From Blastocatellia bacterium (GTDB lineage: Bacteria; Acidobacteriota; Blastocatellia; RBC074), in assembly GCA_035331565.1 (NCBI GenBank), contig DAOLKO010000004.1, forward strand, positions 239,802 through 303,801: a stretch of 64,000 nucleotides of DNA. The letters are read 5' to 3'. Numbering within the stretch: the first letter of the stretch is position 1; the number at the start of each line of letters is the position of its first letter. Positions 6,214 to 59,824 of this stretch are shown here, piece by piece. Under the pieces are notes generated by a model. It worked only from the letters and a program-made list of their open reading frames with translations, had not been told where the DNA came from and searched no databases. Both the position numbers and the translations under genes were made by a program.

Positions 6214-7113
6214 ATGGCTGCTGAATACGACAATCTGCTGAAATACCTAGCTGAAAACCACGCCGAGGCGTTGGCTTCATGGCTGCTTGGCAGGCCGGTC
6301 AAAAATCGCGTGCGATTGTTGAAAACCGAACTGTCGCTGCAGCCGATCCGCTCGGACTTTTTGGCACAGTACGAAGTGGACGATGAAATCCTGCACGCCG
6401 AATTCGAGACCGATCCGGGCAATAGCGAACCGCCGCTGCCGCTGCGAATGATTGATTACTTCGTGCGCACCTACCGCCGCGAACGCAAGCCCGTGCGGCA
6501 AGTCGTCATAGTCCTGTCCGAAACCGGCGCGCCCATCCCGGACGAGTTTCGCGTCGGCGATACCTGCCATCGTTACCGCGTTATCAAAATGTGCGAACAA
6601 GATCCCGCACCACTCTTGGCCGATCCGGGTCTTGCGCCGCTGGCCGTACTGGCACAATCCGATCAGCCCGAACAACTGGTGCGACAAGTCGCCGAAGTGG
6701 TGCAGAATATTCCTGAACCCGGATTGCGCAGCGATTCCACCGCAGCGGCATTCATTCTGGGCGGATTGCGCTTCGACAAAACGCTGTTACGAAGCTTGTT
6801 TAAGGAGGAGATCATGAAACATTCGTCAACTTATCTGGACCTTGTGGAAAGAAGCGAACAACGCGGCGAACAACGCGGCGAACAACGCGGCGTTGTGCTT
6901 GGCGCGCTGAGCGTGTTGAAAGAATTGCTCAAACATCATTTCGGCCAATTGCCTGAAGTGATCGAAGAAAAGCTCGCCAATCTGGACGCGCCGACACTGA
7001 CGCAATTGGGTGTGGCACAGTCCGGTCTCACCTCGCTAGATGAAGTATCCGCCTGGATCGAGCAACACAGACCGCATTCCCATAACGGCACAGTTCAAAA
7101 CGGCGCGGCTTAA
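6214..7113 (+). CDS. Rpn (YhgA-like) family PD-(D/E)XK recombination-promoting nuclease/putative transposase, with DUF4351-like C-terminus
   Basis: N-terminal YDNLLKYL...ALASWLLG resembles the Rpn/Transposase_31 N-terminus. The C-terminal helical region has an EQRGEQRGEQRG repeat, as seen in DUF4351 tails. Confidence 0.45.
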   Translation: MAAEYDNLLKYLAENHAEALASWLLGRPVKNRVRLLKTELSLQPIRSDFLAQYEVDDEILHAEFETDPGNSEPPLPLRMIDYFVRTYRRERKPVRQVVIVLSETGAPIPDEFRVGDTCHRYRVIKMCEQDPAPLLADPGLAPLAVLAQSDQPEQLVRQVAEVVQNIPEPGLRSDSTAAAFILGGLRFDKTLLRSLFKEEIMKHSSTYLDLVERSEQRGEQRGEQRGVVLGALSVLKELLKHHFGQLPEVIEEKLANLDAPTLTQLGVAQSGLTSLDEVSAWIEQHRPHSHNGTVQNGAA

Positions 7114-9551: not shown

Positions 9552-10328
9552 ATGAACGATCACCTAAAATCCAACGTTTACGAGCGATGCGTCGCAGCTT
9601 GGGCGATTGAGGAATTTGATTTCATCGATATCACGGTCACTGCGAATGCGAAGATTCGCGGCCAAATCAGTGGTAGATATCGCCAAGTCGATGTCCTGTT
9701 GGAAGACAGAACCAAAGGCAACCCAAAAGCCCGCGTAATTGTGGAAGCCAAGCTACATGGTCGTCCTATAGATATCGAGGTTGTAGAAGCTACGGAAGCC
9801 AAGCTTCGTGATGTGAATGCCGCCCATGCGGTAATCGTGTCATCAGGTGGTTTCACCAAATCAGCAATTCGCCGTAGCGAAGAGTTCATTGAGTTGACGC
9901 TATTGGGTTACGATCAACTGGTTAACGAATACTCGGATGCGTTCGATAACTGTCTTGCTGATAGTAACTGCGACTTAGAACTTTTATGGTCTGTCGAAAA
10001 GATAGATGGAGCCGGTCCCGGCTGGCTTATGTACAAATACGGCAAGTGCCTCCGCTGCCACACGTTTCACATCCTTTGTCGTGACTGCGATAGCGAATTC
10101 CCAGTTCCAGATGGCCACACTGTGAGGTGTGGATGTGACGACCGAGAATGGGGGGCAATTCCAGAATCAGAAGCGTCAGGCCACACGGGCACTCCAGAGT
10201 CGACATGGCTAATGCTGAGGCTTAATGATGAATTCTACGGATTGCAAAGAAAACCCATTAGCAAGGTCACTTCTCAGATTAACCGGCACGAGAACCACGG
10301 AGGTTGTAATGGTAACGGCGCAAGCTGA
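9552..10328 (+). CDS. Mrr-cat-like restriction endonuclease-fold protein with C-terminal Cys-rich zinc-finger region
   Basis: PD-(D/E)XK-like motif (QVDVLLED...ARVIVEAK). C-terminal CLRCH...CRDCD...CGCD cysteine cluster. Local GC is about 48%, against about 60% in the flanks. Confidence 0.5.
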   Translation: MNDHLKSNVYERCVAAWAIEEFDFIDITVTANAKIRGQISGRYRQVDVLLEDRTKGNPKARVIVEAKLHGRPIDIEVVEATEAKLRDVNAAHAVIVSSGGFTKSAIRRSEEFIELTLLGYDQLVNEYSDAFDNCLADSNCDLELLWSVEKIDGAGPGWLMYKYGKCLRCHTFHILCRDCDSEFPVPDGHTVRCGCDDREWGAIPESEASGHTGTPESTWLMLRLNDEFYGLQRKPISKVTSQINRHENHGGCNGNGAS

Positions 10329-10914
10329 AGCACTTGAACCGAAAGCTTATAAATTGACCGTCGAGGAGTATTCCCGGATGGCGAAAATAGGCATTTTCGA
10401 CGGCAAGCGCGTGGAATTGATCGAAGGGGAGGTGATCGAGATGAGCGCGATGGGCAGACCGCACGTGATTGCGTTGAATAAAACGGCGGATTTGCTGAAG
10501 CGGATTTTCGCCGACGGCTGGTTCGTGCAGACGCAAGCGCCCTTGCGATTCGGCAAACGTTCGGAGCCGGAACCCGACATCGCCGTCATCAAAGGCAAAA
10601 TGGAAGATTACCCAACCGATCACCCAACCACTGCGGACTTAATTATCGAGGTGTCGGACCAAACCCTGAATTACGACCGCAAACGAAAAGCGAGCTTGTA
10701 CGCAAAGGCCGGGATCCAAGATTACTGGGTACTCAATCTCAAAAAGCATCAACTCGAAATTTTTCGCCGCCCCGTTCCCGACGCCGAAGCCCGGCACGGT
10801 TTCAGCTATGAGGATCAACAGGTGGTGAAAGAGAGCGAATCCGTCTCGCCGCTCATCAAACCCGATGCGGCAATTGCCGTCGCCGACTTATTGCCGCCGA
10901 CAAATTACAGATAG
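10309..10914 (+). CDS. Uma2 family (DUF820) PD-(D/E)XK endonuclease
   Basis: YTVEEY / ELIEGE / EPDIAV / DYxxK signature segments typical of Uma2/DUF820. Start is set at the internal Met (MVTAQAEALEPKAY). Confidence 0.65.
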   Translation: MVTAQAEALEPKAYKLTVEEYSRMAKIGIFDGKRVELIEGEVIEMSAMGRPHVIALNKTADLLKRIFADGWFVQTQAPLRFGKRSEPEPDIAVIKGKMEDYPTDHPTTADLIIEVSDQTLNYDRKRKASLYAKAGIQDYWVLNLKKHQLEIFRRPVPDAEARHGFSYEDQQVVKESESVSPLIKPDAAIAVADLLPPTNYR

Positions 10915-10922
10915 GGGTAAGT

Positions 10923-11528
10923 ATGGGAACGACTGTGTCGAAAACGCTGAAAACGGTTGTGATGGGACCGACGCCTCATCGCTGGACGCGCGATGAGTAT
11001 TACAAGATCGGCGAGCTTGGCTTTTTCGACGGCAAGCGCGTCGAATTGATCGAGGGGGAGGTGCTTGAAATGAGTCCTGTTTACAGCCCGCACGTCACGT
11101 CGGTTGTCGTCACGGCGGACATCTTTCGACTGGCGTTCGGCAAAGGCTGGGTTATTCGGGAAGAAAAGCCGATTAGCTTGGGGGCCAGTTCAGACCCGGA
11201 ACCTGACATTGCCGTCGTGGCCGGCAAAGCGCGCGATTACAAAGACGCTCATCCGACAACTGCGGCACTGGTGGTCGAGGTTTCCGATTCATCCTTGGCT
11301 TACGACAGAAATGAAAAAGCCGGCCTGTATGCCAAATCAGGCATCAAGGATTACTGGATCATCAACTTGCCGGATCGGCAGGTTGAAGTTTATCGCCGCC
11401 CGATTGCGGATAACGCGGCGGAGTTTGGATTCAGTTATGCCAACAAAATGATTTTCAAAGAGGGCAAGTCCGTCGCGCCGCTGGCCAAACCCAAAACCAA
11501 AATCGCCGTGGCGGAGTTATTGCCATAA
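10923..11528 (+). CDS. Uma2 family (DUF820) PD-(D/E)XK endonuclease (tandem paralogue)
   Basis: Paralogous to the preceding gene ([11 protein letters not shown]...VELIEGEV...EPDIAVV...[16 protein letters not shown]). Confidence 0.65.
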
Positions 11529-12747: not shown

Positions 12748-12754
12748 ACAACTA

Positions 12755-12850
12755 TCCACGAAGTCACACGAAGATTCACGAAGGAATTTGCAAAACTGGC
12801 TCTTCAAGTTTCCTGAAAAACCTTCGTGCCGCTTTGTGTAACTTCGTGGA
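12755..12850. repeat. MITE-like palindromic intergenic element, copy A (CACGAAG-motif family)
   Basis: Inverted arms TCCACGAAGTCACACGAAGATTCACGAAGG ... CCTTCGTGCCGCTTTGTGTAACTTCGTGGA sit in the fadA-ACAD spacer. Related copies lie at 25488-25610 and 55815-55952. Confidence 0.6.
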
Positions 12851-12872
12851 TGAATTTTATAGGAGAGTAACC

Positions 12873-14657
12873 ATGGCAGCAGCACTCGGAAAAGAAGTCA
12901 TCAAAGGCGGCGCGTTTCTGCTTCAGGAAACGTTGCCCATCAGCGTGTATTCCCCGGAAGATTTCAACGACGAACAGAAATTGATCGGGCAAACCACAAC
13001 CGAATTTTTCGACAAGGAAATCATTCCCAACAGCGACAAGATCGAAAGCAAGGATTACGAAATCCAGCGCGAACTCATCAAAAAAGGCGCGGACCTCGGC
13101 TTGATTAATGCCAGCATTCCCGAAGAGTACGAAGGCCTCGAACTCGATCACGTCTCGAACATGCTCATCGCCGAAAACATGTCCGGGCAGGCGTCGTTTT
13201 CCACTGGTTTCGGTGCGACCAGCAGCATCGGCCTCTTGCCGATTGTGTTGTTCGGCACGCACGAACAAAAGAAAAAGTATTTGCCGAAGATCGGCTCCGG
13301 CGAATGGATCGGCGCGTATTGCCTGAGCGAATCCGGTTCCGGTTCGGACGCGCTGGCGGCCAAATCCACTGCGCGTTTGAGCGAAGACGGTCAGCACTGG
13401 ATTCTGAACGGCGAAAAAATGTGGATCACCAATGGCGGCTTCGGCGATGTCTTCACGGTTTTTGCCAAAGTGGACGGCCAGCATTTCACGGGCTTCATTG
13501 TCGAACGCAACGATGCCGGCCTCAGCAACGGCAACGAAGAACACAAGCTCGGCCAGCGCGGCTCTTCGACTACGCCGATTCTGATGCAGGATTGCAAAAT
13601 CCCTAAAGATCGTTTGCTTGGCGAAATCGGCAAAGGCCATTTGATCGCCTTCAACGTGCTGAATTTTGGCCGCATCAAAATGGGCGCAGGAGCCATCGGC
13701 GGCGGCAAGCGCGTGTTGTCGCAAGCCGCGAAGTATGCCGCGCAACGCCATCAGTTCGGACGTTCAATCGCCACGTTCGGCGCGATCAAATATAAGCTGG
13801 CAGAAATGCTGGCGCGGTTGTATGCGGGCGAATCCGCCGTTTATCGCACCGCCGGCATGATCGAAACCAAGGAAGAAACGATTGATAAAAAGAATCCGGC
13901 AGAATTGATGAAAGCCATTGAGGAATACGCCATCGAGTGCGCCATCATCAAAGTCGCCGGCACCGAAACGCTGTTTTATTGCGCTGATGAAAACGTGCAG
14001 ATTCACGGCGGCAACGGCTTTACCGAAGATTACCCGGCTGAAGGCGTGTATCGCGATTGCCGCGTCAACCGCATTTACGAAGGCACGAACGAAATCAACC
14101 GCCTGTTGATTCCCGGCCAACTCATCAAACGCGCCATGAAAGGCGGCTTGCCGCTGTTCCAGGCCGCGATGAAGCTGCAAGAAGAATTGCTGGCCGGGCC
14201 GTCGTTCGATATGGACGAAGACGATTCGCCGCTGGCAAACGAACGCAAACTGGCCGCCAACGCCAAAAAAATCGCCCTGATGCTGATCGGTTCCGCCGCG
14301 CAGAAATTCCAGGCCGCGCTGACCGAACAGCAAATGATTTTGAGCTGGGCGGCAGATGTCATTATCGAAGCTTTCCAGATTGACAGCGCCATTGGCCGCA
14401 CCATCAAGCTGATTGACCGCGACGGCGCGGACAAACACAGCTACGCGATTGATGCGACCAGGCTCTACACGCACGACGCCATCCTCCGCATCGAAGTCGC
14501 CGCGAAAAACGCGCTGGCCGCGATTGCCGAAGGCGACGAACTGCGTGTGATGCTGGTGGCGTTGCGCCGCCTGACCAAACAAGACCCCATCAACACCGCT
14601 GCCATCCGCGAACGACTGGCCGACAAAGTCGTCGAAGCGGGCGGCTATATTTTCTAG
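12873..14657 (+). CDS. fadE: acyl-CoA dehydrogenase, large (about 594 aa) FadE/AcdA type with ACAD C-terminal domain
   Basis: ACAD motifs (YCLSESGSGSDA, ITNGG, GGNGFTEDYPAEGVYRDCRVNRIYEGTNEI). AGGAGAG RBS 6 nt upstream of the ATG at 12873. Confidence 0.85.
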   Translation: MAAALGKEVIKGGAFLLQETLPISVYSPEDFNDEQKLIGQTTTEFFDKEIIPNSDKIESKDYEIQRELIKKGADLGLINASIPEEYEGLELDHVSNMLIAENMSGQASFSTGFGATSSIGLLPIVLFGTHEQKKKYLPKIGSGEWIGAYCLSESGSGSDALAAKSTARLSEDGQHWILNGEKMWITNGGFGDVFTVFAKVDGQHFTGFIVERNDAGLSNGNEEHKLGQRGSSTTPILMQDCKIPKDRLLGEIGKGHLIAFNVLNFGRIKMGAGAIGGGKRVLSQAAKYAAQRHQFGRSIATFGAIKYKLAEMLARLYAGESAVYRTAGMIETKEETIDKKNPAELMKAIEEYAIECAIIKVAGTETLFYCADENVQIHGGNGFTEDYPAEGVYRDCRVNRIYEGTNEINRLLIPGQLIKRAMKGGLPLFQAAMKLQEELLAGPSFDMDEDDSPLANERKLAANAKKIALMLIGSAAQKFQAALTEQQMILSWAADVIIEAFQIDSAIGRTIKLIDRDGADKHSYAIDATRLYTHDAILRIEVAAKNALAAIAEGDELRVMLVALRRLTKQDPINTAAIRERLADKVVEAGGYIF

Positions 14658-14801: not shown

Positions 14802-15179
14802 ATGAAGATGTCAACGCAAACAATGGAACTGACGGTTGAAAACATTCTCTCGCTGATTGAAAAACTTTCCCTGCCCGACAAACTCAGATTGCGTAGTGCG
14901 CTCAATCAAACCGTGAAAGCGCCTTCCGCCGTTAAAGCGCCACTCGACAAGCGAGTGCCGTGCGAGCCAATGCCGGACAGAGCGCGCGAAAGGCAATGGG
15001 TGAAAGATCATAAGCACGAATATGCTGGTCAGTGGGTGGCGCTGGATGGCGACCAGCTTATTGCTGCCAGTTTCACTCAGCAGGAAGTCTGGGACACAAT
15101 CAATGCCGATAGTCCAAATCCGCCGCTGGTTTTGCGCGTGGCGTCTCCCGATGATCTGCCTTATGTCGGCATTCTTTGA
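14802..15179 (+). CDS. DUF5678-domain protein (antitoxin-like small protein)
   Basis: C-terminal YAGQWVALDGDQLIAAS matches the DUF5678 core. N-terminal helical segment TVENILSLIEKLSLPDKLRL. GGAGG RBS upstream. The stop overlaps the start of the next gene. Confidence 0.45.
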   Translation: MKMSTQTMELTVENILSLIEKLSLPDKLRLRSALNQTVKAPSAVKAPLDKRVPCEPMPDRARERQWVKDHKHEYAGQWVALDGDQLIAASFTQQEVWDTINADSPNPPLVLRVASPDDLPYVGIL

Positions 15180-15592
15180 AGTTTATGAAACAACTCAATT
15201 TCGATCAGGAATACGCTTACCCGGATGATGAGGAAGGTATCTCCATCGCAGTAAAGCTGGCTTATGCCGGACGTCGCTTTGAGGTGTTAGCCAAAGTAGA
15301 CCCAGGCGCTGCCGTCTGTCTTTTCAGTCGTGAAGTTGGATTGAAACTCGGCATTCCGATTGAGCAAGGAGAGCTGATCCGCCTTGGCACGCTGGGCGGT
15401 TCTCTGGAAGCCTTCGGCCACGAAGTGACGCTGCAAACGGGCGACATCGCGTTTCAGAGTTTTGTCTATTTCGCCAAATATTCTGGCTTGCAACGCAATC
15501 TGCTTGGGCGGCGCGGCTGGTTGCGCAACTTGCGGTTGGGCCTGATTGATTACGACAACCTGCTTTATCTGAGCGCCTACGATTCCAATTGA
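15176..15592 (+). CDS. retropepsin-like (clan AA) aspartic protease-fold protein, non-canonical DPG active-site variant
   Basis: AKVDPGAAVCLFSREVGLKLGI follows the retropepsin hhhDTGAs...LGL pattern but has DPG instead of DTG/DSG. The ORF track begins at a TTG at 15176; the first ATG is at 15185. Confidence 0.4.
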   Translation: MKFMKQLNFDQEYAYPDDEEGISIAVKLAYAGRRFEVLAKVDPGAAVCLFSREVGLKLGIPIEQGELIRLGTLGGSLEAFGHEVTLQTGDIAFQSFVYFAKYSGLQRNLLGRRGWLRNLRLGLIDYDNLLYLSAYDSN

Positions 15593-15593
15593 G

Positions 15594-15830
15594 ATGACGA
15601 CAAATTTTCAAATCATTGATGCCTGGGTGCAGCCGGCGCAGCGCGAAGCTTTCGAGAAGCTGCCGGAAGTCACCGCCCCAAACGTGATGGCCACGATTGC
15701 CGAAGGCGACGAACTGCGCGTGATGCTGGTGGCCTTGCGCCGCCTGACCAAACAAGACCCAATCAACACCGCTGCCCTCCGCGAACGTCTGTCAGATAAA
15801 GTCGTCGAAGCGGGCGGCTATATTTTCTAA
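15594..15830 (+). pseudogene. relic of the acyl-CoA dehydrogenase C-terminal domain (mosaic fragment)
   Basis: The last about 150 nt (15683-15830) are about 90% identical to the 3' end of the resident ACAD gene (14510-14657), encoding IAEGDELRVMLVALRRLTKQDPINTAALRERLSDKVVEAGGYIF. The 5' part, AWVQPAQREAFEKLPEV, corresponds to a diverged ACAD SWAADVIIEAFQID segment and is about 96% identical to a second relic at 51720-51770. Confidence 0.55.
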
Positions 15831-15838
15831 ACCAGATC

Positions 15839-15879: not shown

Positions 15880-15909
15880 CTGTTCCCGCCAACTCTTGCC
15901 AATCAACCT

Positions 15910-15971
15910 GATGTTGGGACACTTTTGGAGTGCGGTTGCTTGAAACCGCACTCCAAAAGTGTCCCAACATC
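15910..15971. terminator. 27-bp-stem palindrome between convergent genes (bidirectional terminator candidate)
   Basis: GATGTTGGGACACTTTTGGAGTGCGGTT gcttgaa AACCGCACTCCAAAAGTGTCCCAACATC, immediately 3' of the minus-strand BNR protein gene. Confidence 0.5.
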
Positions 15972-15995
15972 AGCGGCGGTACTGATTCGGCTATT

Positions 15996-22729: not shown

Positions 22730-22857
22730 AATGCACCTTTTCCTCTCATCATAATTGGCCCAACGATGCAGGCCATTTTAGCGATTTCCATCGAAGCATA
22801 AACCGCCAATTGCGAGCCAATTTCGCCCAGCCAATTTTCAGCCGAAAAACGAATGCG

Positions 22858-22919
22858 GTAAGCGAGCGTGAGCAAGCGCCAACAGCTTGATGTTGATGCG
22901 CTCGCTCACGCTCGCTTAC
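22858..22919 (-). terminator. hairpin terminator downstream of ADOP permease 1
   Basis: 22-bp inverted repeat GTAAGCGAGCGTGAGCAAGCGC / GCGCTCGCTCACGCTCGCTTAC with an 18-nt loop, followed on the minus strand by a TTTTT run. Confidence 0.5.
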
Positions 22920-22954
22920 CGCATTGAGAAAAGGCTCCGGCTGCGTCAGAGCGA

Positions 22955-25405
22955 CTACTCGCAGCGCAAAGCAATCATCGGCTCGACCTTCGTTGCCCGG
23001 CGCGCGGGAATCCAACAGGCCAACAACGCAACCGTCAGGAGCACCAACGGCACGCTAATAAATGTCGGCGGGTCGGTCGGGCTGATGCCGTAAAGCAGGC
23101 TTTTCAGCACGCGGGTCGCGGCAAAGGCTCCAGCCAGACCAAGCGCAGCGCCTAGGGCAACCAGCTTGATTCCCTGCCCCACAACCAACCGCAACACGTC
23201 CCTGCCTTGCGCGCCCAACGCCATACGGATGCCGATTTCCCGCGTTCGCTGTGCAACGCTGAACGCCAACACGCCGTACAGTCCCAACGCCGCCAGCACC
23301 AACGCCAGCAAACCGAATCCGCCGATCAGGAATGTTTGCAGCCGTCTGGTAAACAGCGCATCGCGCCAATAAGCATCGAGCGTTTTGACCTGATAAATCG
23401 GCAGCCGAGCATCGAGCGAACGGATTTGCTGTTGCACAGCGGCAAGCAACGATTCCGGCCCGGCAGCCGCGCGTAAATGTAAAGTCATGCCGCTGTTGTA
23501 TTGCTGAGCGAACGGAAAGTAGGCGGTGACGGACGGCTCATCGAACAACGAATGACCTTTGGCATCGCGCACCACTCCGACGACTTCGACAGGCTCGTCT
23601 CCTTTGCGGTTTTTCCACCTGAAGACTTTGCCCAGCGGGTTTTCGTTCGGCCAGATGCGGCGCGCAAAGGTTTCGTTGATCAGCGCAACACGCGGAGCTT
23701 CGGCCTTGTCCTGTTCGGTAAAGCCTCGCCCGACCAGCAAAGGCAATCCAATCGTGTTCGGATAATCGGGCGTGACGACGTTGTATTTCACGTTGAAATT
23801 CGGATGCATTTCCGTCGCGGCGTTGTTACCGAAACTGTTGCCTTGCAACGGAACCGTCAGCGCCAGACTTGCGGATTCGACTCCGGGCAATCCGCCCAGG
23901 CGTTCCAGCAATTGTTGGTAAAACAGTTTCCCTTGCTGTTCGGAATAATTCTGCCGCCCCAAATCCAGTCTGGCGGTCAACACATTTTCCCTGCTAAAGC
24001 CGACGTTGATCGCCTGTGCTTTTTGCAGCGAACGCACGCACAAACCCGCGCTGACCAGCAGCATCAGCGACAAGGCGATTTGCGCGACCACCAACCCGGA
24101 ACGCAACCGAGTCCGCGTGTGACGACTGACGGCACTGCCGGAGTTTTTGAGCAACGGCAACAAATTCGTTCGCGTGGCCTGCAAGGCGGGAGCAAGCCCG
24201 AACAACAACCCCGTCAAAACCGAGATTCCGGCTGTAAATCCAAACACGCGCCGGTTCAACGCGAAACCGAGCGAAGCACGCATATCGCTTTGTTCGTCCG
24301 GCAATCCGATGCGCAACGCATCGGTCAGCCACCAGGCAACCATTAACGACAACATTCCGCCAAGCAACGCCAGCAAAGTGCTTTCGGTCAGCAACTGCCG
24401 CACAACGCGCCACCGACCTGCTCCCAGCGCCAATCGAACACCGATTTCTTTTTGCCGGGCCGCCGTGCGAGCCAACGTCAAGCCGGCGATGTTCGCGCAG
24501 GCAATCAACAACACCAGCGCGACAATGCCGAATTGAATGGTCACAAGCTGCCCGATTTCGGCGGAATCTCCGGGCGACATTCCCAATCCGGCAACGACGC
24601 GCGCACCGCGTTTCGCATTCGTTTTCGGATAGGCCAGCCCCAGACGCGCGGCAATGACATCCAAATCGGCTTGTGCCTGAGCCACTGTGACGCCGGGTTT
24701 CAATCGCCCAATGACGCCGGCGAAATCCGAACTGCGACTGTTCAGCCAATCCGCGCCGATTTGCACCATCCACGGATTGCCGTGTCGCCACATCGTAATG
24801 GGAATCCAGACATCAGTGTTCTCGTCCATTCGGCTCGTGCCTTTGAATTCGGCGGCAACGCCGACGATTGTGTACGAATGGGAATTCAAGCTGACGGCCG
24901 TGCCCGCAACGTTGGGCGAAGCGCCGAATTGATGTCGCCACAACCGTTCGCTGATGACGGCAACCGGGTTCGCGCCTTCGACAACCGATTCCGCCGGTTG
25001 CAGCAAGCGTCCAAGTTTGGGTTGCACGCCCAGCACGTCAAAGTAATTGCCCGTTACCAGCGAACCTTTGATGCGTTCGGCGGCTTTGTCCGTGCCGAAA
25101 TGAAATTGCTGCTCGCTTTCGGCGGCAATTGCCGCAAACGCCGTCGTTTGCGCCGCGTAATCGCGGTAATCGGGAAACGACACCGAATTGAATCCTTTGC
25201 CGCCGTAGGTTTGTCCCACCTGCACCAGTTGCGACGGCTCAGTCACTCCGGGCAAAGGCTTCAGCCAGAGTGCGTCCAGCACGCTGAAGATCGTCGCATT
25301 CGCTCCAATGCCGAGCGCCAGAATGACCACCGCAATCAGCGTGAAGCCCGGTTGTTTCGCCAACATACGCGCGCCGTAGCGCAAGTCTTGCCAAAGTGTC
25401 TGCAT
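22955..25405 (-). CDS. ADOP-family ABC transporter permease (duplicated MacB-like periplasmic domain + FtsX; TIGR03434-like)
   Basis: N-terminus [41 protein letters not shown]; 816 aa; AAGGAG RBS. Confidence 0.85.
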   Translation of the reverse strand: MQTLWQDLRYGARMLAKQPGFTLIAVVILALGIGANATIFSVLDALWLKPLPGVTEPSQLVQVGQTYGGKGFNSVSFPDYRDYAAQTTAFAAIAAESEQQFHFGTDKAAERIKGSLVTGNYFDVLGVQPKLGRLLQPAESVVEGANPVAVISERLWRHQFGASPNVAGTAVSLNSHSYTIVGVAAEFKGTSRMDENTDVWIPITMWRHGNPWMVQIGADWLNSRSSDFAGVIGRLKPGVTVAQAQADLDVIAARLGLAYPKTNAKRGARVVAGLGMSPGDSAEIGQLVTIQFGIVALVLLIACANIAGLTLARTAARQKEIGVRLALGAGRWRVVRQLLTESTLLALLGGMLSLMVAWWLTDALRIGLPDEQSDMRASLGFALNRRVFGFTAGISVLTGLLFGLAPALQATRTNLLPLLKNSGSAVSRHTRTRLRSGLVVAQIALSLMLLVSAGLCVRSLQKAQAINVGFSRENVLTARLDLGRQNYSEQQGKLFYQQLLERLGGLPGVESASLALTVPLQGNSFGNNAATEMHPNFNVKYNVVTPDYPNTIGLPLLVGRGFTEQDKAEAPRVALINETFARRIWPNENPLGKVFRWKNRKGDEPVEVVGVVRDAKGHSLFDEPSVTAYFPFAQQYNSGMTLHLRAAAGPESLLAAVQQQIRSLDARLPIYQVKTLDAYWRDALFTRRLQTFLIGGFGLLALVLAALGLYGVLAFSVAQRTREIGIRMALGAQGRDVLRLVVGQGIKLVALGAALGLAGAFAATRVLKSLLYGISPTDPPTFISVPLVLLTVALLACWIPARRATKVEPMIALRCE

Positions 25406-25433
25406 AAACTTTTCTCCTTAACAATCCGGCATT

Positions 25434-25667
25434 TAGACAGGATTGACAGGATTTTTTCGGGATTGACAGGATGCCTTTATAGCTTTCAAGAAAATGTTTT
25501 CCACGAAGTCACACGAAGCTTCACGAAGAAAAACCAAATTTCTCTGATTCCACTCTTCGTGGTTTCTTCGTGTGGCTTCGTGGAGGGAAACTCTTTTTCT
25601 TAGTGGCTGTCGGCGAGCTTTTTGCCGATCCCGTCAATCCTGTGACAAATCCTGTCAATCCTGTCTA
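25434..25667. repeat. composite palindromic element: about 40-bp inverted arms with GATTGACAGGAT repeats flanking MITE-like element copy B (25488-25610)
   Basis: Left arm TAGACAGGATTGACAGGATTTTTTCGGGATTGACAGGAT. The reverse complement of the right arm is TAGACAGGATTGACAGGATTTGTCACAGGATTGACGGGAT. The inner element is CAAGAAAATGTTTTCCACGAAGTCACACGAAGCTTCACGAAG...CTTCGTGTGGCTTCGTGGAGG. It lies between two ADOP genes, immediately upstream of the 25405 start. Confidence 0.65.
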
Positions 25668-25686
25668 TTCCGCCTTGCTTTTTGCA

Positions 25687-28107
25687 TTACTCACAACGCA
25701 AAGCGACCATCGGATCAACCTTTGTTGCGCGCCACGCCGGAATCCAGCAGGCCACAAAGGCCACGCCGATCAGCAAACCCGACGCCGCAAGAACACTGAG
25801 CGGGTCGGCGGCTTTGACGCCGTAAAGCAAACCGGCGATCAAGCGTGCAAGCCCGAATGCGCCGAACAATCCCAGCGCGACGCCGGCGGCAACCAGTTTC
25901 ATTCCCTGCCCGACAATCAGCCGCAAAACGTCACGCGAACCGGCCCCCAGCGCCACGCGAATGCCGATTTCGTGCGTGCGTTGCGAAACCATTTGCGACA
26001 TCACGGCGAACAGTCCCGCCGCCGACAACAACAGTGCAACAAGCGCAAACGTTCCCAACATGACCATCGGAAAACGACGACGCGCCACGGCGTCGGAAAG
26101 GTGCTGTTCCAGAGTCTTGAGATTGTAAAGCGGCTGATCGCGATCCAGTTCGGCCAGCGCCTGCCGTACGGCATTCGCCGACGCCGCCGGGTCGCCAGCG
26201 GTTTTCATCGCAACGCTGATGAAGGCCGCAGGCTGTTGCTGCGAGTGCAGGTAAAATTCCGGCAGAACTTCGCTTTCCAGTCCCAGCGTTTTGACATCGC
26301 CGACGACACCGACGACTTCGTAAACTTGCGGATTGCCGCGATCCAACAACACGCGTTTGCCGACGGGGTTGTCCTGTTGAAAGAGTTTCCGCGCCAGCGT
26401 CTGATTCAACATCAGAACTCGCGGCGCACCTCGGCGGTCTTGTTCGTTGAAAATGCGTCCGGCCAATAGGGGAATGCCCAGCGCGCGGAAGTAATCCGCG
26501 CCGGCCACTTGCGACAAACCGACGATGCCTTCTTTCTCCGCGCCGTCGCCTTCGCGTTTGATCGGCCAGCCGTTCAGTGCCGCGTTCGCCGCCATAGGCA
26601 AATGGCTGGCGGAACCGACTGCCTCGACGCCCGGCAATGCCTGCAAACGTTCGATCACGCTTTGATAAAAAGCCGCGCGCTGTTCGGGCGTACCGTATTT
26701 CAACGCGGTAGGCGCAAGCTCGAAGGTCAACACGCGCTCCGGGTTGAAGCCGGGTTGAAGCTGCATCACCGCATAAAAACTTCTGACCATCAGCCCTGCG
26801 CCCAGCAGCAAGACCAGCGCCAGCGCAACTTCGCCGACCGTGAAAATCCTGCGCAAACGCGGTGTCATTCCGATGGCGGTGCGGCTTCCGCTTTCTTTCA
26901 GCGCCTGCGCCAGATCGGGTTTCGACGCCTGCCAGGCCGGAATCAATCCGCAAAGCAAACCGGTCAGGAAGGTCACGCCCAGACAAAACAACAGCACACG
27001 CCAATGCAGCGTCACGGAGTTCAAGGAGGCAATCTGCGTCGGGCTGACGGCCGTCAGCGCGTCCACCAGCCAGATTGAAAGCAGCAATCCCAGCGCGCCG
27101 CCGACCGCTGCCAGCAACAGGCTCTCGGTCAGCCACAAACGCAGCAATCGCGCCCGGCTTGCGCCCAACGCCGCACGCAACGCCGTTTCCTTGCCGCGCG
27201 CCACGGATCGCGCCAGCAATAGATTGGCGACGTTGGCGCAAGCAATCAGCAACACGAAGGCCACCGCCGCCAATAACATCAACAACGGTTTTTGAATTTC
27301 GCCCGAAAACTTTTCGCTGAGCGGCGACAGCCTGACGCGCGGGTCATAGGTGAATTCGCCGAATGTTTTGACTTCGAGTTTGAGTCGTTGGTTGAGCAGC
27401 GTCAGTTCGGCTTGCGCCTGTTCAAGCGGCACGCCGACTTTGAGTTTACCGATGGCTTCCCAGTAATAAGTTTCTTTGGCCAGCACGTCATCGTTGGGCA
27501 GCAGCGGAATCCACAGCGCGGCGCGGCGGCCGTCGTGGGCGTATTGGAAACTCGGCGGCATCACGCCGACGACATCGAAACCGACGCCGTTGAGCCGGAT
27601 CGTTTGCCGCAAAATGTCCGGGGAACCGCCGTAGCGTCGCTGCCAAAGTTCATGGCTGAGCAAGGCGACGCGATTGCCGCCGCTGCGTTGTTCGTCCGCA
27701 GAAAACCAACGTCCCAGCAGCGGATTGACGCCCAGCAACGGAAAGAACTCCGCCGAAACGCGCATCACCTGCGCGCGTTCCGGCGTGTGTTCATCGGTCA
27801 GGTTGGCGCGCCCGGCGTCGTAAGCCGCCAGCGATTCCAGCGACTGCACAGGCTGTTTGCGCTGCATGAATTTGTCCGGCGCATCGAAAACGGCTTCGAG
27901 CAAGGTTCCGACGCCTTGTTTGACCAGCACCAGACGCTCCGGCGCGGTAAACGGCAACGGACGAAACAGCAAAGCGTCCGCAAAGCTGAACAGCGCGGTG
28001 TTCGCTCCAATCGCCAGCGCCAGCATGCCGACCACAACCAACACAAAGCTTTTTTGCCGGCTTAAAAATCGGATGATGTATTTCAAGTCTTGTCGCAGGG
28101 TTTGCAT
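25687..28107 (-). CDS. ADOP-family ABC transporter permease
   Basis: MQTLRQDLKYIIRFLSRQKSFVLVVVGMLALAIGANTALFS. The start at 28107 is preceded by a GAGGAGATA RBS; about 806 aa. Confidence 0.85.
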   Translation of the reverse strand: MQTLRQDLKYIIRFLSRQKSFVLVVVGMLALAIGANTALFSFADALLFRPLPFTAPERLVLVKQGVGTLLEAVFDAPDKFMQRKQPVQSLESLAAYDAGRANLTDEHTPERAQVMRVSAEFFPLLGVNPLLGRWFSADEQRSGGNRVALLSHELWQRRYGGSPDILRQTIRLNGVGFDVVGVMPPSFQYAHDGRRAALWIPLLPNDDVLAKETYYWEAIGKLKVGVPLEQAQAELTLLNQRLKLEVKTFGEFTYDPRVRLSPLSEKFSGEIQKPLLMLLAAVAFVLLIACANVANLLLARSVARGKETALRAALGASRARLLRLWLTESLLLAAVGGALGLLLSIWLVDALTAVSPTQIASLNSVTLHWRVLLFCLGVTFLTGLLCGLIPAWQASKPDLAQALKESGSRTAIGMTPRLRRIFTVGEVALALVLLLGAGLMVRSFYAVMQLQPGFNPERVLTFELAPTALKYGTPEQRAAFYQSVIERLQALPGVEAVGSASHLPMAANAALNGWPIKREGDGAEKEGIVGLSQVAGADYFRALGIPLLAGRIFNEQDRRGAPRVLMLNQTLARKLFQQDNPVGKRVLLDRGNPQVYEVVGVVGDVKTLGLESEVLPEFYLHSQQQPAAFISVAMKTAGDPAASANAVRQALAELDRDQPLYNLKTLEQHLSDAVARRRFPMVMLGTFALVALLLSAAGLFAVMSQMVSQRTHEIGIRVALGAGSRDVLRLIVGQGMKLVAAGVALGLFGAFGLARLIAGLLYGVKAADPLSVLAASGLLIGVAFVACWIPAWRATKVDPMVALRCE

Positions 28108-28141
28108 CTTTATCTCCTCAAGGTGAACCGCCGAAAAACTT

Positions 28142-30586
28142 CTACTGACAGCGCAACACAACCATCGGATCCACTTTCGTCGCGCGGCGCGCCGGAATCC
28201 AACAAGCCGTCAGTGACGCGGCGACAAGCAACAGCGAAACGCCCGCAAAAGTCACTGGCTCAATCGCCGGCACGCCGTAAAGCAATCCGCTCAACAACCG
28301 CGTCCCGGCAACGGCGGCGATCAGACCGACGGCAAAGCCCAGCAGCGTCAGCCGCAAACCGTAGCCGATAACTACTCGCGCAATCAGCGCCGCATCTGCG
28401 CCGAGCGCCATGCGGATGCCGATTTCGCGCGTGCGCGCCGTGACCGAATGCGACATCACGCCGAAAATGCCTATCACCGCCAGCAACAGCGCCAGCAAAC
28501 CGAACGCCGCCAGCAAACCCGCCGCCACGCGCGCCGGGAACAGTGGCACGTCCATGTGCTCGGTCAACGTCTTCACGTTGTAAATCGGCAACTGCGCGTC
28601 CAGCCGTTGAAACTCTTCGCGCAGGGCGGCAATCAGCGTTTGCGTATCGCCGGAGGTGCGCGCAACCAACGTTAAAAAGCCGCCGTGTTGCGAGCGCAGA
28701 TTGAGATAAGCAAAAGGCTGCGTCGCTTCGTTCAGGCTGAAATACTTGCCGTTTTCAATGACGCCTACGATTTCAATCCACGGCCCCTCCGCGCCGTTCA
28801 GGCTGAAGCGTTTGCCCAAGGCGGATTGTCCCGGCCAGAAACGGCGGGCCAAGCTATCGTTGACCAGCGCCAGCGCGCGGTCATTCATGATTTCCTGCCG
28901 TGTGAAATCGCGGCCTTCCAGCAGCCTTGTCCCCATCGCCGCAATCAAACCTTCAGTGCCGCGCGAAGTGACGGCCATGGGCGCATTGGCCCCCAATTGT
29001 TCGGGTTGCCCCTCGATGGCAAGGGATTCGGTGTTCAGGTTCAGACTGAGCGGCATGGAATTGGTCAGCCCGGCGGCTTGCACGCCCGGCAAAGAAAGTG
29101 CGCGGGTCAGAATTTGCTCTTTGAATTGCCGCGTGCGCCCTTCATCGTATCCTTGCAAAGCCAGATCGAACGACACCTCTACGGCGCGCTGCGTGACCAT
29201 CCCGTGACGGATGCGTTGTGCGTTTTGCAATCCGCGCAAAACCAGTCCGGCGCAAATCAACAGCACCAACGACAGCGCCACCTGCACGACGACCAACCCG
29301 CCGCGCAACCACGAACGACGATACCCGCCGATGGAAGTGTCGTCTTTCAACACCGGGACAAGTTCAGGCTTGGCGGCCTGCAAAGCGGGCAACAATCCAA
29401 ACACCAAGCCGGTCAACATCGAAGCCGCGCCGGTAAACAGCAGCACACGCAAATCCACGCGCAATTCCAGAGTCAACGGAATGTCCGCCGGCGGTTTGAA
29501 CGCCATTACCAAATCCATCAACCAATAGGCCAGCAGCAGCCCCAGCCCCCCACCCATCAGTGAAAGCAGAATGTTTTCGGTCAGCAATTGCCGCACGATA
29601 CTCCAGCGCCCGGCACCAAGCGCCAGACGAATGGCGATTTCCTTGCGCCGTTCCGCCGCGCGTGCCAGCAATAGATTGGCCAGATTGGTGCAGGCCAGCA
29701 GCAACACCATCCCGACCACGGCCATCAACACGCCCGCGAAGCCCAGCACAGGCCCGCGCATAAACGCGCCGAACAACCCCGGCGGCGAAAGCGCGATGGT
29801 CGCGCCTTCGTTTTCTTTCGGGTATTCGTGCGCCAATTGCGCGGCGATGTTTTTTAGCGCGACTTCAGCTTGCTCCCCGGTAACGCCGGGTTTGAGCCGC
29901 CCTTGGACAAAAAAATTCGATGTGTCGCGGTCGTTCAGGTAATCGCGCCCCGGCTCAATATTCTTCAACATCATCGAAGAAAACCACATCTCCGCACGGT
30001 AGCTGACTTCCGTGCCATGAAATCCTTGCGGAGTGACGCCGATGATCGAATAGCTGCTTCCGTTGACCAAAACGCCGCGTCCCACTATGTTCGGATCGCC
30101 GCCGAAACGCCGCTGCCAGCAGTCATAAGAAAGCACCGTCACCGGATGCGCGCCCGCCGTTTTGTCGTCTTCCGGCGTGAGCAAACGTCCCAGCGCCGGT
30201 TTCACGCCGAGCAACGGAAAGTAATTGCCCGTCGCCAGATAACTCCACACCCGCGCGTTGACGCCGTTTTCGCTTAAACCGACCGGCACAAAACGATAAG
30301 CCAGCAAACCTTCCAGCACGTCGTTGCGGTCGCGTATATCCCGATAATTGGGAACTGAAAACGTCGGAAAATTTCGTTTCCCATCCAACGAGACGCTGTT
30401 GAGCGCCACCAATCGTTCAGGCTCTGCCACGGGCAATGGCCGCAGCAGCACCGTGTTCACCAAACTGAAAATCGCCGTATTCGCGCCTATGCCCAGTGCC
30501 AGCGTCAGCAAAGCAATCAGCGTAAAGCCGGGTCGTTTCCTCAACATTCGCGCGCCGTAGCGCAGGTCTTGCAACAGGGTTTGCAT
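28142..30586 (-). CDS. ADOP-family ABC transporter permease
   Basis: [41 protein letters not shown]; 814 aa. There is a 34-nt gap to the downstream paralogue, so the two are likely co-transcribed. Confidence 0.85.
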   Translation of the reverse strand: MQTLLQDLRYGARMLRKRPGFTLIALLTLALGIGANTAIFSLVNTVLLRPLPVAEPERLVALNSVSLDGKRNFPTFSVPNYRDIRDRNDVLEGLLAYRFVPVGLSENGVNARVWSYLATGNYFPLLGVKPALGRLLTPEDDKTAGAHPVTVLSYDCWQRRFGGDPNIVGRGVLVNGSSYSIIGVTPQGFHGTEVSYRAEMWFSSMMLKNIEPGRDYLNDRDTSNFFVQGRLKPGVTGEQAEVALKNIAAQLAHEYPKENEGATIALSPPGLFGAFMRGPVLGFAGVLMAVVGMVLLLACTNLANLLLARAAERRKEIAIRLALGAGRWSIVRQLLTENILLSLMGGGLGLLLAYWLMDLVMAFKPPADIPLTLELRVDLRVLLFTGAASMLTGLVFGLLPALQAAKPELVPVLKDDTSIGGYRRSWLRGGLVVVQVALSLVLLICAGLVLRGLQNAQRIRHGMVTQRAVEVSFDLALQGYDEGRTRQFKEQILTRALSLPGVQAAGLTNSMPLSLNLNTESLAIEGQPEQLGANAPMAVTSRGTEGLIAAMGTRLLEGRDFTRQEIMNDRALALVNDSLARRFWPGQSALGKRFSLNGAEGPWIEIVGVIENGKYFSLNEATQPFAYLNLRSQHGGFLTLVARTSGDTQTLIAALREEFQRLDAQLPIYNVKTLTEHMDVPLFPARVAAGLLAAFGLLALLLAVIGIFGVMSHSVTARTREIGIRMALGADAALIARVVIGYGLRLTLLGFAVGLIAAVAGTRLLSGLLYGVPAIEPVTFAGVSLLLVAASLTACWIPARRATKVDPMVVLRCQ

Positions 30587-39318: not shown

Positions 39319-39459
39319 TTGGGGCGAACGCGGCTGCTCGTCAGGCGGGTTGGTACTTTTTCGGTGGGTGTTTTTGAAAGTGCAACAACAGTTTGCGTTG
39401 ATTGATTGCGCCCTTTCGATTCAAGTCCAACTCCGCGACAGTGGCGCGTCCGGTCGGAG

Positions 39460-39780
39460 TCAGGCCGATGATGATTGCAAAGTCATCGCTCCAGGCAAAG
39501 TGTTCGTGCCAGTCGTGCCGGCGCGGATGTTAAAGCGGGACGGATTCCTGGCTAATCGGATCAATCGCGTAGTCTTGTTGTATTTGTGGTTGTTACACCG
39601 CTGGCAGGCTCGCGCGAGGTTTTCCGCAATGCTTTTGCCGCCGACTGAAAGCGGGTTGATGTGCTCGGTGGAGAAAGCGTCCGGGCCGTAATCTTCCTGA
39701 CAGATGCAATATTCACAGCATCCTCCCGCGCGTTCTTTAACCAACTGCCGGAGTTTGGTTGGAATTCGGTGTTTAGTCAT
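39460..39780 (-). CDS. HNH endonuclease
   Basis: HNH motif CEYCICQ...EHINPLSVGG...NLARACQRCNNHK. Start MTKHRIPTK at 39780; 8-bp overlap (ATGACTAA) with the upstream partner gene. Confidence 0.75.
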   Translation of the reverse strand: MTKHRIPTKLRQLVKERAGGCCEYCICQEDYGPDAFSTEHINPLSVGGKSIAENLARACQRCNNHKYNKTTRLIRLARNPSRFNIRAGTTGTNTLPGAMTLQSSSA

Positions 39781-40162
39781 GAGGCACTGGTTTGATGCCA
39801 AGCTGCCGCATCAATTCATCGAGTGTGACACTGCGCAACATCGCCAGTTGGGCCAGGCATTGCAACCGCTCGACGCCGATCTCTTCGGATTGATCCGTGA
39901 GTCGGATCAATTCTTCAAGTTCAGCAGGAGTAATGACGCCTTCTCCGCGCCTCTCGATCAATTTGTTCATTCGCCGGCGCGCCGGAGGCGGGAGGTCTTG
40001 ATTGATTTTGAGCAGCAGTCCGGTTTCAGCTTCGGATAGGTTGGGGGTTTCTTCTCGCGCCTTAAGAGCAAAGAGTTTGGCGGCGAATCGGTCAAACTCC
40101 TGACGCGGCAATTGCAACGCGGCGTTCAAGATTTGTTCGGGTTCAATTTGAATGGTTGGCAT
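39773..40162 (-). CDS. small helical protein translationally coupled to the HNH endonuclease (function unknown)
   Basis: MPTIQIEPEQILNAALQLPRQEFDRFAAKLFALKAREE... Its stop overlaps the HNH start. The start coordinate is approximate (about 40159-40162). Confidence 0.4.
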   Translation of the reverse strand: MPTIQIEPEQILNAALQLPRQEFDRFAAKLFALKAREETPNLSEAETGLLLKINQDLPPPARRRMNKLIERRGEGVITPAELEELIRLTDQSEEIGVERLQCLAQLAMLRSVTLDELMRQLGIKPVPHD

Positions 40163-40231
40163 AACGCTGACTCCTGATTTCGGTAACGCGCCAAATAATA
40201 AACTGCTCCGCGCGACATTGGCGAACAAAAC

Positions 40232-40310
40232 GAGGTGTGAAATGAGGAGATTGGCGCAAACTCTTTAGCAAGACTTGCGCTACGGCGAGCGAATGCTGAT
40301 AGCGGGATGA
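40232..40310 (+). pseudogene. relic 5' end of an ADOP permease gene (RBS + about 20 codons, in-frame stop)
   Basis: GAGGTGTGAAATGAGGAGATTGGCGCAAACTCTTTAGCAAGACTTGCGCTACGGCGAGCGAATGCTG aligns with the ADOP4 start region (GAGGTGAAAATGAATTCGCTTTGGCAAGACTTGCGCTATGGCGCGCGAATGTTACTG). It translates to MRRLAQTL*QDLRYGERMLIAG*. Confidence 0.6.
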
Positions 40311-40418
40311 TGCTGCTGCTGACTGCGCTCCGCAGGGAATGATGAAATCGTCGAACTGCAACGCGAGGGGACGATCATCAAAACGACAAAGATTGACAGC
40401 GAATGGGAGGATTTACAG

Positions 40419-42905: not shown

Positions 42906-42925
42906 CCGAAAGAAGGGGAATCTAC

Positions 42926-49672: not shown

Positions 49673-49683
49673 ATTCAGTTATC

Positions 49684-49744: not shown

Positions 49745-51280
<1,536 letters not shown>

Positions 51281-59817: not shown

Positions 59818-59824
59818 CTAAGGT

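Follow-up and report, generated by a model that had tools for sequence, protein, structure and literature searches.

Repetitive extragenic palindromic (REP) sequences, bacterial interspersed mosaic elements (BIMEs), Correia elements, and MITEs (miniature inverted-repeat transposable elements) rank among the most common non-coding features found in bacterial genomes. To our knowledge, work on such small palindromic repeats has been confined almost entirely to Proteobacteria, Neisseria, streptococci, and cyanobacteria. The Correia repeat enclosed elements (CREE) of Neisseria are palindromes of 100–155 bp that have TA/TATAG ends (the slash marks the element boundary), with TA as an apparent duplication. 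They form co-transcribed hairpins, cleavage by RNase III and binding by integration host factor (IHF) are known, and there is no known cognate transposase. REP super-families have so far been defined by their GTAG or CGTC tags (PMC3733652), and in a census of prokaryotic MITEs, the clusters were almost always genus-specific (PMC11602168). Here we describe a family of palindromic elements that are built on the heptamer CACGAAG. Three copies (A, B, and C) lie in a 64-kb stretch of the genome of a Blastocatellia bacterium, from the phylum Acidobacteriota (contig DAOLKO010000004.1, positions 239,802–303,801; hereafter, the window). Homologs of the thiolase place the window in the Blastocatellia as well. 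We think it fairly probable that the three copies are members of a family whose elements are small, non-coding, non-autonomous, and mobile, being of the MITE kind or the REPIN (REP doublet forming hairpin) kind, and that the heptamers are recognition sites.

This analysis adds the empty site for copy C, the TA/TAR ends, the reciprocal nesting with a second palindromic family, the arms of phased heptamers, the occurrence of this architecture across phyla, and the sister variants. The CACGAAG family would give hard-to-culture soil phyla a comparable, easily recognized element of unusual design.

Three copies with arms of repeated heptamers

A first-pass annotation of the window, made from the sequence alone, had described three copies with inverted arms, all of them intergenic. 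The gene context and the arms bear this out, and the positions it gave were correct to within a few bases. The copies, which have no assigned strand, and their parts are as follows.

12754–12851: copy A, short form (98 bp), between the fadA stop (12747) and the start of the acyl-CoA dehydrogenase gene (ACAD; 12874)
12754–12789: left arm of copy A, with CACGAAG at 12757, 12767, and 12777
12790–12815: loop of copy A
12816–12851: right arm of copy A, with CTTCGTG at 12822 and 12842 and a degenerate CTTTGTG in between
25480–25603: copy B, long form (124 bp), whose left end is TA/TAGCTTTCAAGAAAATGTTTTCC
25502, 25512, and 25522: CACGAAG units of copy B, followed by a 26-nt loop and by CTTCGTG at 25555, 25566, and 25576
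55819–55948: copy C, long form (130 bp), TAACCTTCAAGAAAATGTTTTCC ... GGAAGGAAAATGTTTTTCTTGATGTCTA
55817–55818 and 55949–55950: TA on either side of copy C
55851 and 55861: CACGAAG units of copy C, which also has a degenerate CACAAAG, with CTTCGTG at 55894, 55905, and 55915

Each copy consists of 2–3 CACGAAG units at ~10-bp spacing, a variable loop of 26–38 nt, and then 2–3 CTTCGTG units. The arms of copy A are 36 nt each and 81% complementary, and the core arms of copies B and C are comparable. The annotation had also said that copies B and C extend outward, and both do carry outer arms (TATAG-nnn-TCAAGAAAA-nn-TTTTCC), with the qualification that the right outer arm of copy B (GGAGGGAAACTCTTTTTCTTAG) is shortened and lacks the terminal CTATA. 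Copy A is the core only. Across the three copies, the arms are 36–50 nt long and their conserved parts are 81–95% complementary, so terminal inverted repeats are present. The feet of the elements read ATCCACGAAG or TTTTCCACGAAG, with no GTAG or CGTC tag. All three copies are wholly intergenic and have no coding capacity.

CACGAAG occurs 30 times in the window, versus 11.4 ± 3.2 times in dinucleotide-preserving shuffles. The elements account for 16 of the 30 (5 in copy A, 6 in copy B, and 5 in copy C), and the remaining 14 are at the background level. In an nhmmer search of the window, a profile of 105 arms taken from other genomes matched exactly six arms (E = 4e-11 to 4e-7); the next match had E = 0.12. 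Copies B and C, which lie 30 kb apart and have unrelated flanks, share 83% identity over 131 nt.

On either strand, each of the three copies has a long predicted hairpin (-45 to -57 kcal/mol, z = -7.4 to -8.7), and none of 200 shuffles was as stable. For copy A, the predicted fold is -45 kcal/mol, which bears out in silico the large RNA hairpin that the annotation had proposed there.

Copy C is an insertion

A related contig (L353) encodes a deoxyhypusine-synthase-like protein that is 94% identical to the one beside copy C and has the same ABC-3C neighbors, and it lacks copy C. The alignment has a clean gap of 132 columns at the site of copy C, with well-conserved flanks. Relative to L353, copy C is a discrete insertion of ~130 nt. 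This insertion, along with the further copies in other genomes (below), supports the original description of the family as MITE-like.

The filled site reads GATC-TA/TAACCTTCAAG...CTTGATGTCTA/TA-GAAC, so that the element starts with TAACC and ends with GTCTA. In other Blastocatellia loci, the consensus for the end of the long form is (c)TA-TAR-nn-TTCAAGAAAA-nn-TTTTCC-ACGAAG. As sequences, these ends appear compatible with duplication of a TA target. The check for target-site duplications that the annotation had suggested does show a flanking TA...TA or TCTATA at copy C, but it is short and ambiguous: because CTATAG is palindromic (and recurs at other copies), the duplication can be read as TA, as TCTATA, or as a terminal repeat.

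The same comparison with L353 shows a 10-nt insertion in the window at 55975–55988, which is 25 nt from copy C. It forms a small hairpin (GTCAGTCTGAC) within a GAATTC site.

The heptamers are conserved, not the pairing

Across 72 distinct palindromic elements, the starts of neighboring heptamers are most often 10 bp apart (149 cases), with other distances of 11 bp (40), 9 bp (34), or 20–21 bp (22). The outermost unit follows a T-Y-A-T-C consensus, and 89% of arms have C at -1. For a test of pairing, we located arms with the search pattern and then scored the opposite arm. In the opposite arms, 95% of heptamer positions (1696/1785) are intact, with 65% complementarity for the outer spacer and 38% for the inner one. 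In the 20 elements with six intact heptamers, the outer spacer is again 65% complementary and the inner spacer is 23% complementary, which is the chance level. Because the heptamers are intact while the inner spacers are not complementary, the arms consist of a conserved motif repeated in a row and are not simply inverted repeats that pairing maintains. What is conserved is a heptamer per helical turn, which points to a putative sequence-specific protein partner.

We also considered mismatches that would still pair as G.U on one strand. Among 28 elements that lie between co-oriented genes, there were 43 such mismatches on the coding strand and 55 on the other strand (p = 0.27). This lack of strand bias argues against selection on the elements as RNA from one strand.

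The mobile-element model builds on the anatomy, the insertion polymorphism, the nesting, and the conservation of motif over pairing, and we infer from these the protein binding, the transposition mechanism, and the effect on RNA that it would involve. Each end of an element comprises two to four inward-pointing CACGAAG heptamers that are one helical turn apart (9–11 bp), with the outermost usually preceded by C, and the long form adds an outer inverted repeat, TAR-nn-TTCAAGAAAA-nn-TTTTCC, next to TA. The heptamers would be bound by the protein responsible for moving or copying the element (most likely a transposase that is supplied in trans), which may bind cooperatively along one face of the DNA at both ends. 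Intact master copies would be the source of new copies. Few landing sites would be tolerated, typically a TA-containing stretch that runs from a stop codon or a promoter to the next ribosome-binding site, or else the center of another palindrome. After insertion, most copies would decay.

Reciprocal nesting with the ACAGGAT family

A second palindromic element encloses copy B at its center. It is made of (T)GACAGGAT units at 9–20 bp spacing:

25434–25475, plus strand: left arm of the ACAGGAT element, with (T)GACAGGAT units at 25441 and 25461 and a partial unit
25622–25667, minus strand: right arm of the ACAGGAT element, with units at 25628, 25649, and 25658

The 21-nt arms of the ACAGGAT element are 100% complementary. 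The composite (25434–25667) fills the spacer between two permease genes, and its sense strand is predicted to fold into one rod of ~240 nt (-124.6 kcal/mol, z = -12.5). The reverse nesting, with ACAGGAT in the loop of a CACGAAG element, is found at at least eight Blastocatellia loci (L003, L072, L074, L087, L092, L096, L118, and L125). These reverse-nested composites are ~200 bp long and have internal sequence in common, so they seem to have spread as units.

The ACAGGAT family is also found past the thiolase gene of a distant acidobacterium (L167).

Distribution across phyla and sister variants

A survey of other genomes, one per species, looked for three CACGAAG units at 3–4 nt spacing and gave at least 120 stretches. 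Of the 120 listed, 59 are accompanied by an inverted partner array no more than 160 nt away, and 17 are simple tandem repeats. Within the Acidobacteriota, the palindromic form is on long contigs from Blastocatellia, Pyrinomonadaceae, and Holophagaceae (1.6 Mb). It is also on long contigs or chromosomes from Planctomycetota (1.08 Mb) and from two groups of Chloroflexota, namely Chloroflexia (186 kb) and Caldilineaceae (741 kb), as well as in Bacteroidales (437 kb; Bacteroidota), Calditrichota, Syntrophobacter (Desulfobacterota), and Lindowbacteria. Related copies, including long forms, are present in many Blastocatellia and beyond, and the flanks of the three copies in the window are unrelated, so the local duplication that the first-pass annotation had named as the alternative does not explain the family.

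Raw counts of heptamer triples cannot serve as evidence: in viral contigs, two shuffled heptamers gave 16 and 49 stretches, versus 19 for CACGAAG. An inverted partner array was found for none of the 65 stretches with shuffled heptamers, versus 7 of the 19 viral stretches with CACGAAG. Since shuffled triples are just as frequent but are never paired, it is the architecture that is special, not the number of triples. The outer arms vary by lineage; for instance, they are GCAACTGC...TTAACC in Planctomycetota.

In 666 kb of DNA from acidobacteria, most of which had been fetched regardless of the motif, we then searched for palindromes of phased hexamers in an unbiased way. Seven of the 14 real cases are CACGAA, and the rest are CACGGA, CACAGA, CGCAGA, CGCGAA, CAGGAT, and GCACAA. 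Sister variants in other Acidobacteria include CACAGAG, CACGGAG, and CGCAGAT, and many of them lie right past the stop codon of the thiolase gene. The general unit is C-R-C followed by 4–5 purines. A thiolase-based scan of metagenomes for relatives, which gave matches of at most 71% identity, was of no use for finding empty sites and revealed sister variants at the equivalent site.

It is possible, and we suggest it tentatively, that these arrays and their sister variants (CACAGAG, CACGGAG, CGCAGAT, and CGCGAAA, with a period of 9–11 bp) form a third, undescribed super-family of palindromes beside the GTAG and CGTC REPs. Its reader protein, whether a domesticated single-copy transposase (class 3 TnpA_Y1, for example) or a host factor, would be conserved and common to Acidobacteriota, Planctomycetota, Chloroflexota, Bacteroidota, and others, and the arrays would be kept in operon spacers, where they would shape mRNA processing. 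If one conserved partner protein does act across phyla, then the arrays would open a new way into a so far unknown DNA transaction.

A nested palindrome in the window lies between the ABC-3C operon and a nuclease/protease gene (59824–59975; outer arms TGAAGCCTGTGCAAATTGAA and TTTAATTTGCACAGGCTTCA). Its inner arms (59847–59873 and 59909–59935) are made of CGCAAAG/CGCGAAG units and are probably a sister variant of the CACGAAG family. Some IMG/VR "viral" contigs of one lineage (L131, L134, L137, L139, L141, and L146) have up to four copies per 14 kb, and each arm of their variant has four units (TTCACCACGAAGgaCACGAAGgnnnCACGAAGgnaCACGAAGg ... GTGGTGAAG). Such contigs could be prophages, or bacterial DNA that was mis-assigned.

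Gene context and orthologous spacers

Copy A fills the spacer between the genes for thiolase (fadA) and acyl-CoA dehydrogenase (ATG at 12874): it begins 6 nt past the fadA stop codon and ends 8 nt ahead of the Shine-Dalgarno sequence. The annotation had this location right, but the spacer is 126 bp rather than 125 bp. Copy B lies between two tandem minus-strand genes for ADOP/MacB-type (MacB/FtsX) permeases. Copy C is in a 314-bp divergent spacer between the deoxyhypusine-synthase-like gene (probable start, 55748) and the ABC-3C defense operon. Given where they have landed, copies A and B are probably part of their operons' transcripts. As hairpins in mRNA, they could work as sites for processing, as stability elements, or as attenuators. 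In both the fad operon and the ADOP permease cluster, there are very stable predicted intercistronic hairpins, which may uncouple the expression of neighboring genes.

A scan for consensus terminators and promoters found no canonical one at copies A or C, and only a partial sub-hairpin at copy B. We rejected the idea of Rho-independent terminators, because the loops are 26–38 nt and, in copies B and C, the paired outer arms contain the T runs. Although the plus arm is rich in purines, mimicry of Shine-Dalgarno or anti-Shine-Dalgarno sequences and CsrA (GGA) sites were also rejected, as the elements are palindromic and have no strand bias. All-against-all clustering of ORFs (open reading frames) from 120 loci found no recurrent family of neighboring genes, which makes a shared regulon or a linked gene unlikely. 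We discarded statistics on gene orientation because the crude ORF calls were too noisy (copy A was misclassified).

In relatives, the spacer between fadA and the ACAD gene contains:

L121 and L122 (thiolase protein identical to that of the window): the same element as in the window
L228–L230 (thiolase protein 98% identical): the same element, with decayed heptamers
L123 and L124 (97%): two GTAG-type REP hairpins
L125 (95%): a composite, with CACGAAG outside and ACAGGAT inside
L126, L128, and L231 (89–96%): an extra small ORF

The spacer upstream of fadB also varies. It has a CACGAAG element in L125 and L228, a minimal hairpin in L126, and another palindrome in L128; in the window, an Rpn-like gene lies exactly where L228 has the CACGAAG element. 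Because the copies are polymorphic between close relatives, the arrays could serve as a marker for strain typing.

The window and L228 are 90% identical in thiolase DNA and differ at 25.6% of third positions. The 100-nt windows that directly flank copy A are 96–100% identical, and the spacer itself differs at 9 of 125 positions, of which 4 are in the heptamers (out of 42) and 5 are in the rest of the element (out of 54). This shows that the heptamers of copy A are under no special local constraint.

At a larger distance, three acidobacterial contigs (L204, L215, and L223) whose thiolase genes differ at 34–39% of third positions have a CACGAAGG/CCTTCGTG array in the same place, directly past the thiolase stop codon (TAACCAC...). 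The units are kept, the loops cannot be aligned, and one unit has changed in a compensatory way (CACAAAG/CTTTGTG). More generally, nearly all of the acidobacterial lineages that we examined have some palindrome directly past the thiolase stop codon, and many copies elsewhere end 8–25 nt ahead of a Shine-Dalgarno sequence and ATG.

GTAG REP hairpins (e.g., TTCCGCC-nnnn-GGCGGGACTAC) are at 11198–11288 of L123/L124, which is the fadA–ACAD spacer, and also in L149, L170, and L173; in these contigs they coexist with CACGAAG arrays as a separate family. In L173, a RAYT-like gene (501–1112; RAYT is a REP-associated tyrosine transposase) is immediately upstream of the thiolase gene and the GTAG REPs are downstream. 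Some metagenome-assembled genomes (MAGs) are labeled "uncultured Heliomicrobium sp." (Bacillota), and this label looks wrong (L001, L045, L054, L064, L065, L068, L076, and L230): the thiolase of L230 is 98% identical to the window's, and the DNA of L054 is nearly identical to that of an Acidobacteria MAG, L050.

Searches for a partner enzyme or a known family

No transposase, and no Y1 gene, is encoded in the 64-kb window. Across 2.8 Mb of loci, we found no transposase between widely separated arms; the genes enclosed by arms at a distance of 0.5–4 kb are ordinary ones (hemerythrin/PAS, cupin, phage Mu F-like). Similarly, no autonomous insertion sequence (IS) that shares the ends of the elements turned up in the window, between separated arms in the 2.8 Mb, or recurring beside the arrays, in a search that covered no complete genome. 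Scanning the loci for HUH/Y1 motifs gave a single RAYT-like ORF, the one in L173, which is tied to the GTAG REPs and not to CACGAAG arrays. Rfam had no match in the window at gathering thresholds; below the thresholds, the only matches were to models of eukaryotic microRNA hairpins, plus a few others that are due to chance. No similar DNA was found in plasmid and phage collections. Searching the literature by sequence returned only primer noise, and searching it by concept found papers on REP, RAYT, and MITE sequences, none of which names a family of CACGAAG arrays.

Weighing the explanations

Several observations count against mobile elements that insert and then decay. No cognate transposase was found in the window or in the 2.8 Mb of loci. 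The target duplication is weak evidence, since it comes from one filled/empty pair in which TA, TCTATA, and a terminal repeat are indistinguishable. Copies A and B are atypical, as copy B lacks the right-hand CTATA and copy A lacks both outer arms, and half-elements are common (60 of the 145 arms ascertained had no recognizable partner). The termini vary while the inner heptamer is constant, which is the reverse of the usual transposon family and could indicate a conserved host protein. Finally, the copies in L204, L215, and L223 suggest maintenance in place instead of simple decay, although selection, correction of one arm by the other, or re-insertion at a preferred site could each account for their persistence.

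We consider it unlikely that these are hairpins that the host selects for their structure and keeps in place, such as RNase III/E sites, blocks to 3'-exonucleases, attenuators, or stalls for ribosomes that are finishing the upstream gene. Such a role would suit copies A and B, which fill stop-to-ribosome-binding-site spacers in probable operons and have sense-strand folds of -45 and -125 kcal/mol, as well as the many copies that end shortly before a Shine-Dalgarno sequence, the palindromes past the thiolase stop in nearly all acidobacterial lineages examined, and the persistent units of L204/L215/L223 with their one compensatory change. It would not explain why the spacers within the stem are not complementary (23–38%), why there is no sense-strand excess of G.U-compatible mismatches, or why the decay of copy A in L228 is equal inside and outside the heptamers. 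Also, copy C, which a close relative lacks, lies in a divergent promoter region, the simple scan saw no canonical terminator or promoter at copies A or C, and pure structure leaves the presence of the same heptamer across phyla unexplained.

A more specific version of the mobile-element model is a REPIN-like system, in which a single-copy, domesticated HUH tyrosine transposase (a RAYT or a class 3 TnpA_Y1) would copy the elements via single-stranded hairpin intermediates and the elements would mostly be inherited vertically. The inverted doublets that form hairpins, their insertion at the centers of other palindromes, and their persistence at orthologous sites over deep divergence all agree with this. 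The taxonomic range also overlaps that of class 3 TnpA_Y1 (Planctomycetes and Acidobacteria), and acidobacterial Y1 transposases with repeated terminal inverted repeats at their flanks have been reported (PMC3733652). Still, we are doubtful of this version: the foot of the hairpin has no GT[AG]G or CGTC tag; CACGAAG elements lack a CnGA foot, although CACAGAG and CACGGAG have one; the sole RAYT-like ORF in the loci (L173) goes with classical GTAG REPs; and TA-flanked ends would better suit a cut-and-paste DDE element, as Y1 makes no duplication.

It seems quite improbable that the arrays are operators of a conserved host DNA-binding protein and mark a regulon or chromosome-organizing sites. 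Candidates would be an OmpR/PhoB-type response regulator (which reads direct repeats with a period of 10–11 bp) or a nucleoid or replication protein. Helical phasing, strict conservation of the heptamer with free spacers, and a heptamer that stays constant in several phyla while the outer sequences differ are what operators would show, and T-Y-A-T-C-CACG resembles the DnaA box (TTATCCACA) at 8 of 9 positions. But the flanking genes have no common family or function, many sites run from a stop codon to a ribosome-binding site and are not promoters, presence differs between close relatives, and the elements nest within other repeats. The sister heptamers CACAGAG, CACGGAG, and CGCAGAT would each need their own protein. 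We dropped the DnaA box as the main explanation because the inner units are unlike it, position 9 is G and not A, and the sister families differ.

That the three copies are unrelated chance hairpins, simple 10-bp tandem repeats, or local duplicates has practically no likelihood, for although shuffled-heptamer triples are about as frequent in viral contigs, it is refuted by the partner-array controls (0 of 65, versus 7 of 19 viral stretches and 59 of the 120 listed genome stretches) and by the highly significant profile matches of all six arms, and the 83% identity of the distant copies B and C, with their unrelated flanks, also speaks against it.

Other repeats and rearrangements in the window

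This genome is unusually rich in hairpin repeats. Other repeats in the window are:

15908–15973 and 57268–57356: long hairpins with a common motif (TTTGGAGTGCG / CGCACTCCAAA), the first with 30-nt arms that are 100% complementary
22852–22925: intergenic palindrome with 28-nt arms that are 96% complementary
22955–30586 and 36898–45328: two clusters on opposite strands, each with three paralogous genes for ADOP-type permeases (MacB_PCD + FtsX, ~800 amino acids)
49675–49739: intergenic palindrome of GTCAGTT-type units
51241–51309: intergenic palindrome of degenerate CACCGAAG/CACGGAAA units
52545–52600: tandem array with seven copies of an 8-bp unit (GCCTACCG)

The TTTGGAGTGCG / CGCACTCCAAA motif also forms palindromes past the thiolase gene in the distant Acidobacteria L151 and L155, and it is another dispersed family. 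The permease clusters account for most of the long direct and inverted repeats in the window.

There are three copies of the 3' end of the ACAD gene: the true one (14493–14656), a direct copy that is 91% identical (15666–15834), and an inverted copy (51481–51773). The gene for the beta subunit of ATP synthase is directly past ACAD in L228; in the window, it is 35 kb away and on the other strand (49745–51235). This displacement implies that a segment of ~35.7 kb (15.83–51.48 kb), which includes the permease clusters, is inverted or inserted relative to L228, or there could be an assembly error.

The fad operon is interrupted by small, apparently selfish genes (6214–7113, 9552–11528, and 14802–15592). 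The cassettes encode an Rpn-like putative nuclease/transposase (a weak match, E = 3e-4), an Mrr_cat nuclease, and two Uma2 nucleases, and past ACAD there is a DUF5678/aspartyl-protease-like pair. In relatives, the same fad junctions have other cassettes (PIN, DUF4160/DUF2442, YCII, and ParE).

Comparison with known systems

Like MITEs (e.g., those derived from IS630), the CACGAAG elements are small (98–130 bp in the window, inside the 50–800 bp range of MITEs), have terminal inverted repeats, lack ORFs, are dispersed between genes with TA-flanked ends, and show insertion polymorphism. They differ in that no parental IS with matching ends was found, the heptamer array occurs across phyla, and the arms are conserved only at the heptamers. 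The presence of several binding sites per end (putative ones here), in the same orientation and mirrored between the ends, is shared with Mu, Tn7, Tn402/Tn5053, and the IS607 family, and the end sites of Mu contain CGAAA-type motifs. But the sites of Mu- or Tn7-type elements are ~20 bp with 20-bp or irregular spacing, and they have TG...CA termini and 5-bp duplications, none of which we see here.

In Planctomycetes and Acidobacteria, class 3 TnpA_Y1 genes are flanked by atypical structures with a 5' CnGA foot, of which there are ~600 in S. usitatus (Quentin et al. 2018, PMC6006769). Compared by description only, these structures are similar to ours in their overlapping phyla, high copy number, and REP-like behavior, and class 3 TnpA_Y1 is our best lead for a partner.

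Similarities to REPs, BIMEs, and REPINs include high-copy extragenic palindromes that lie past stop codons and within operons, inverted doublets, hairpins, long vertical persistence, and a short motif that crosses phyla. In contrast to REPs, the CACGAAG arrays have no GT[AG]G or CGTC tag, and no RAYT was found next to any CACGAAG copy. Also, the arrays are made of 7-nt units that are repeated two to four times at a 10-bp period, while a REP is a single imperfect palindrome of 20–40 nt.

In end structure, size, location, and hairpin formation, the closest analog appears to be the Correia element of Neisseria, which is likewise small, intergenic, and non-coding, with TA/TAR ends and hairpins. 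The sequences are unrelated, however, and Correia elements have plain 26-bp inverted repeats (TATAGTGGATTAACAAAAACC...) instead of phased heptamers. Whereas Correia elements are confined to Neisseria, the CACGAAG architecture spans several phyla, with a member of the Blastocatellia as its host here.

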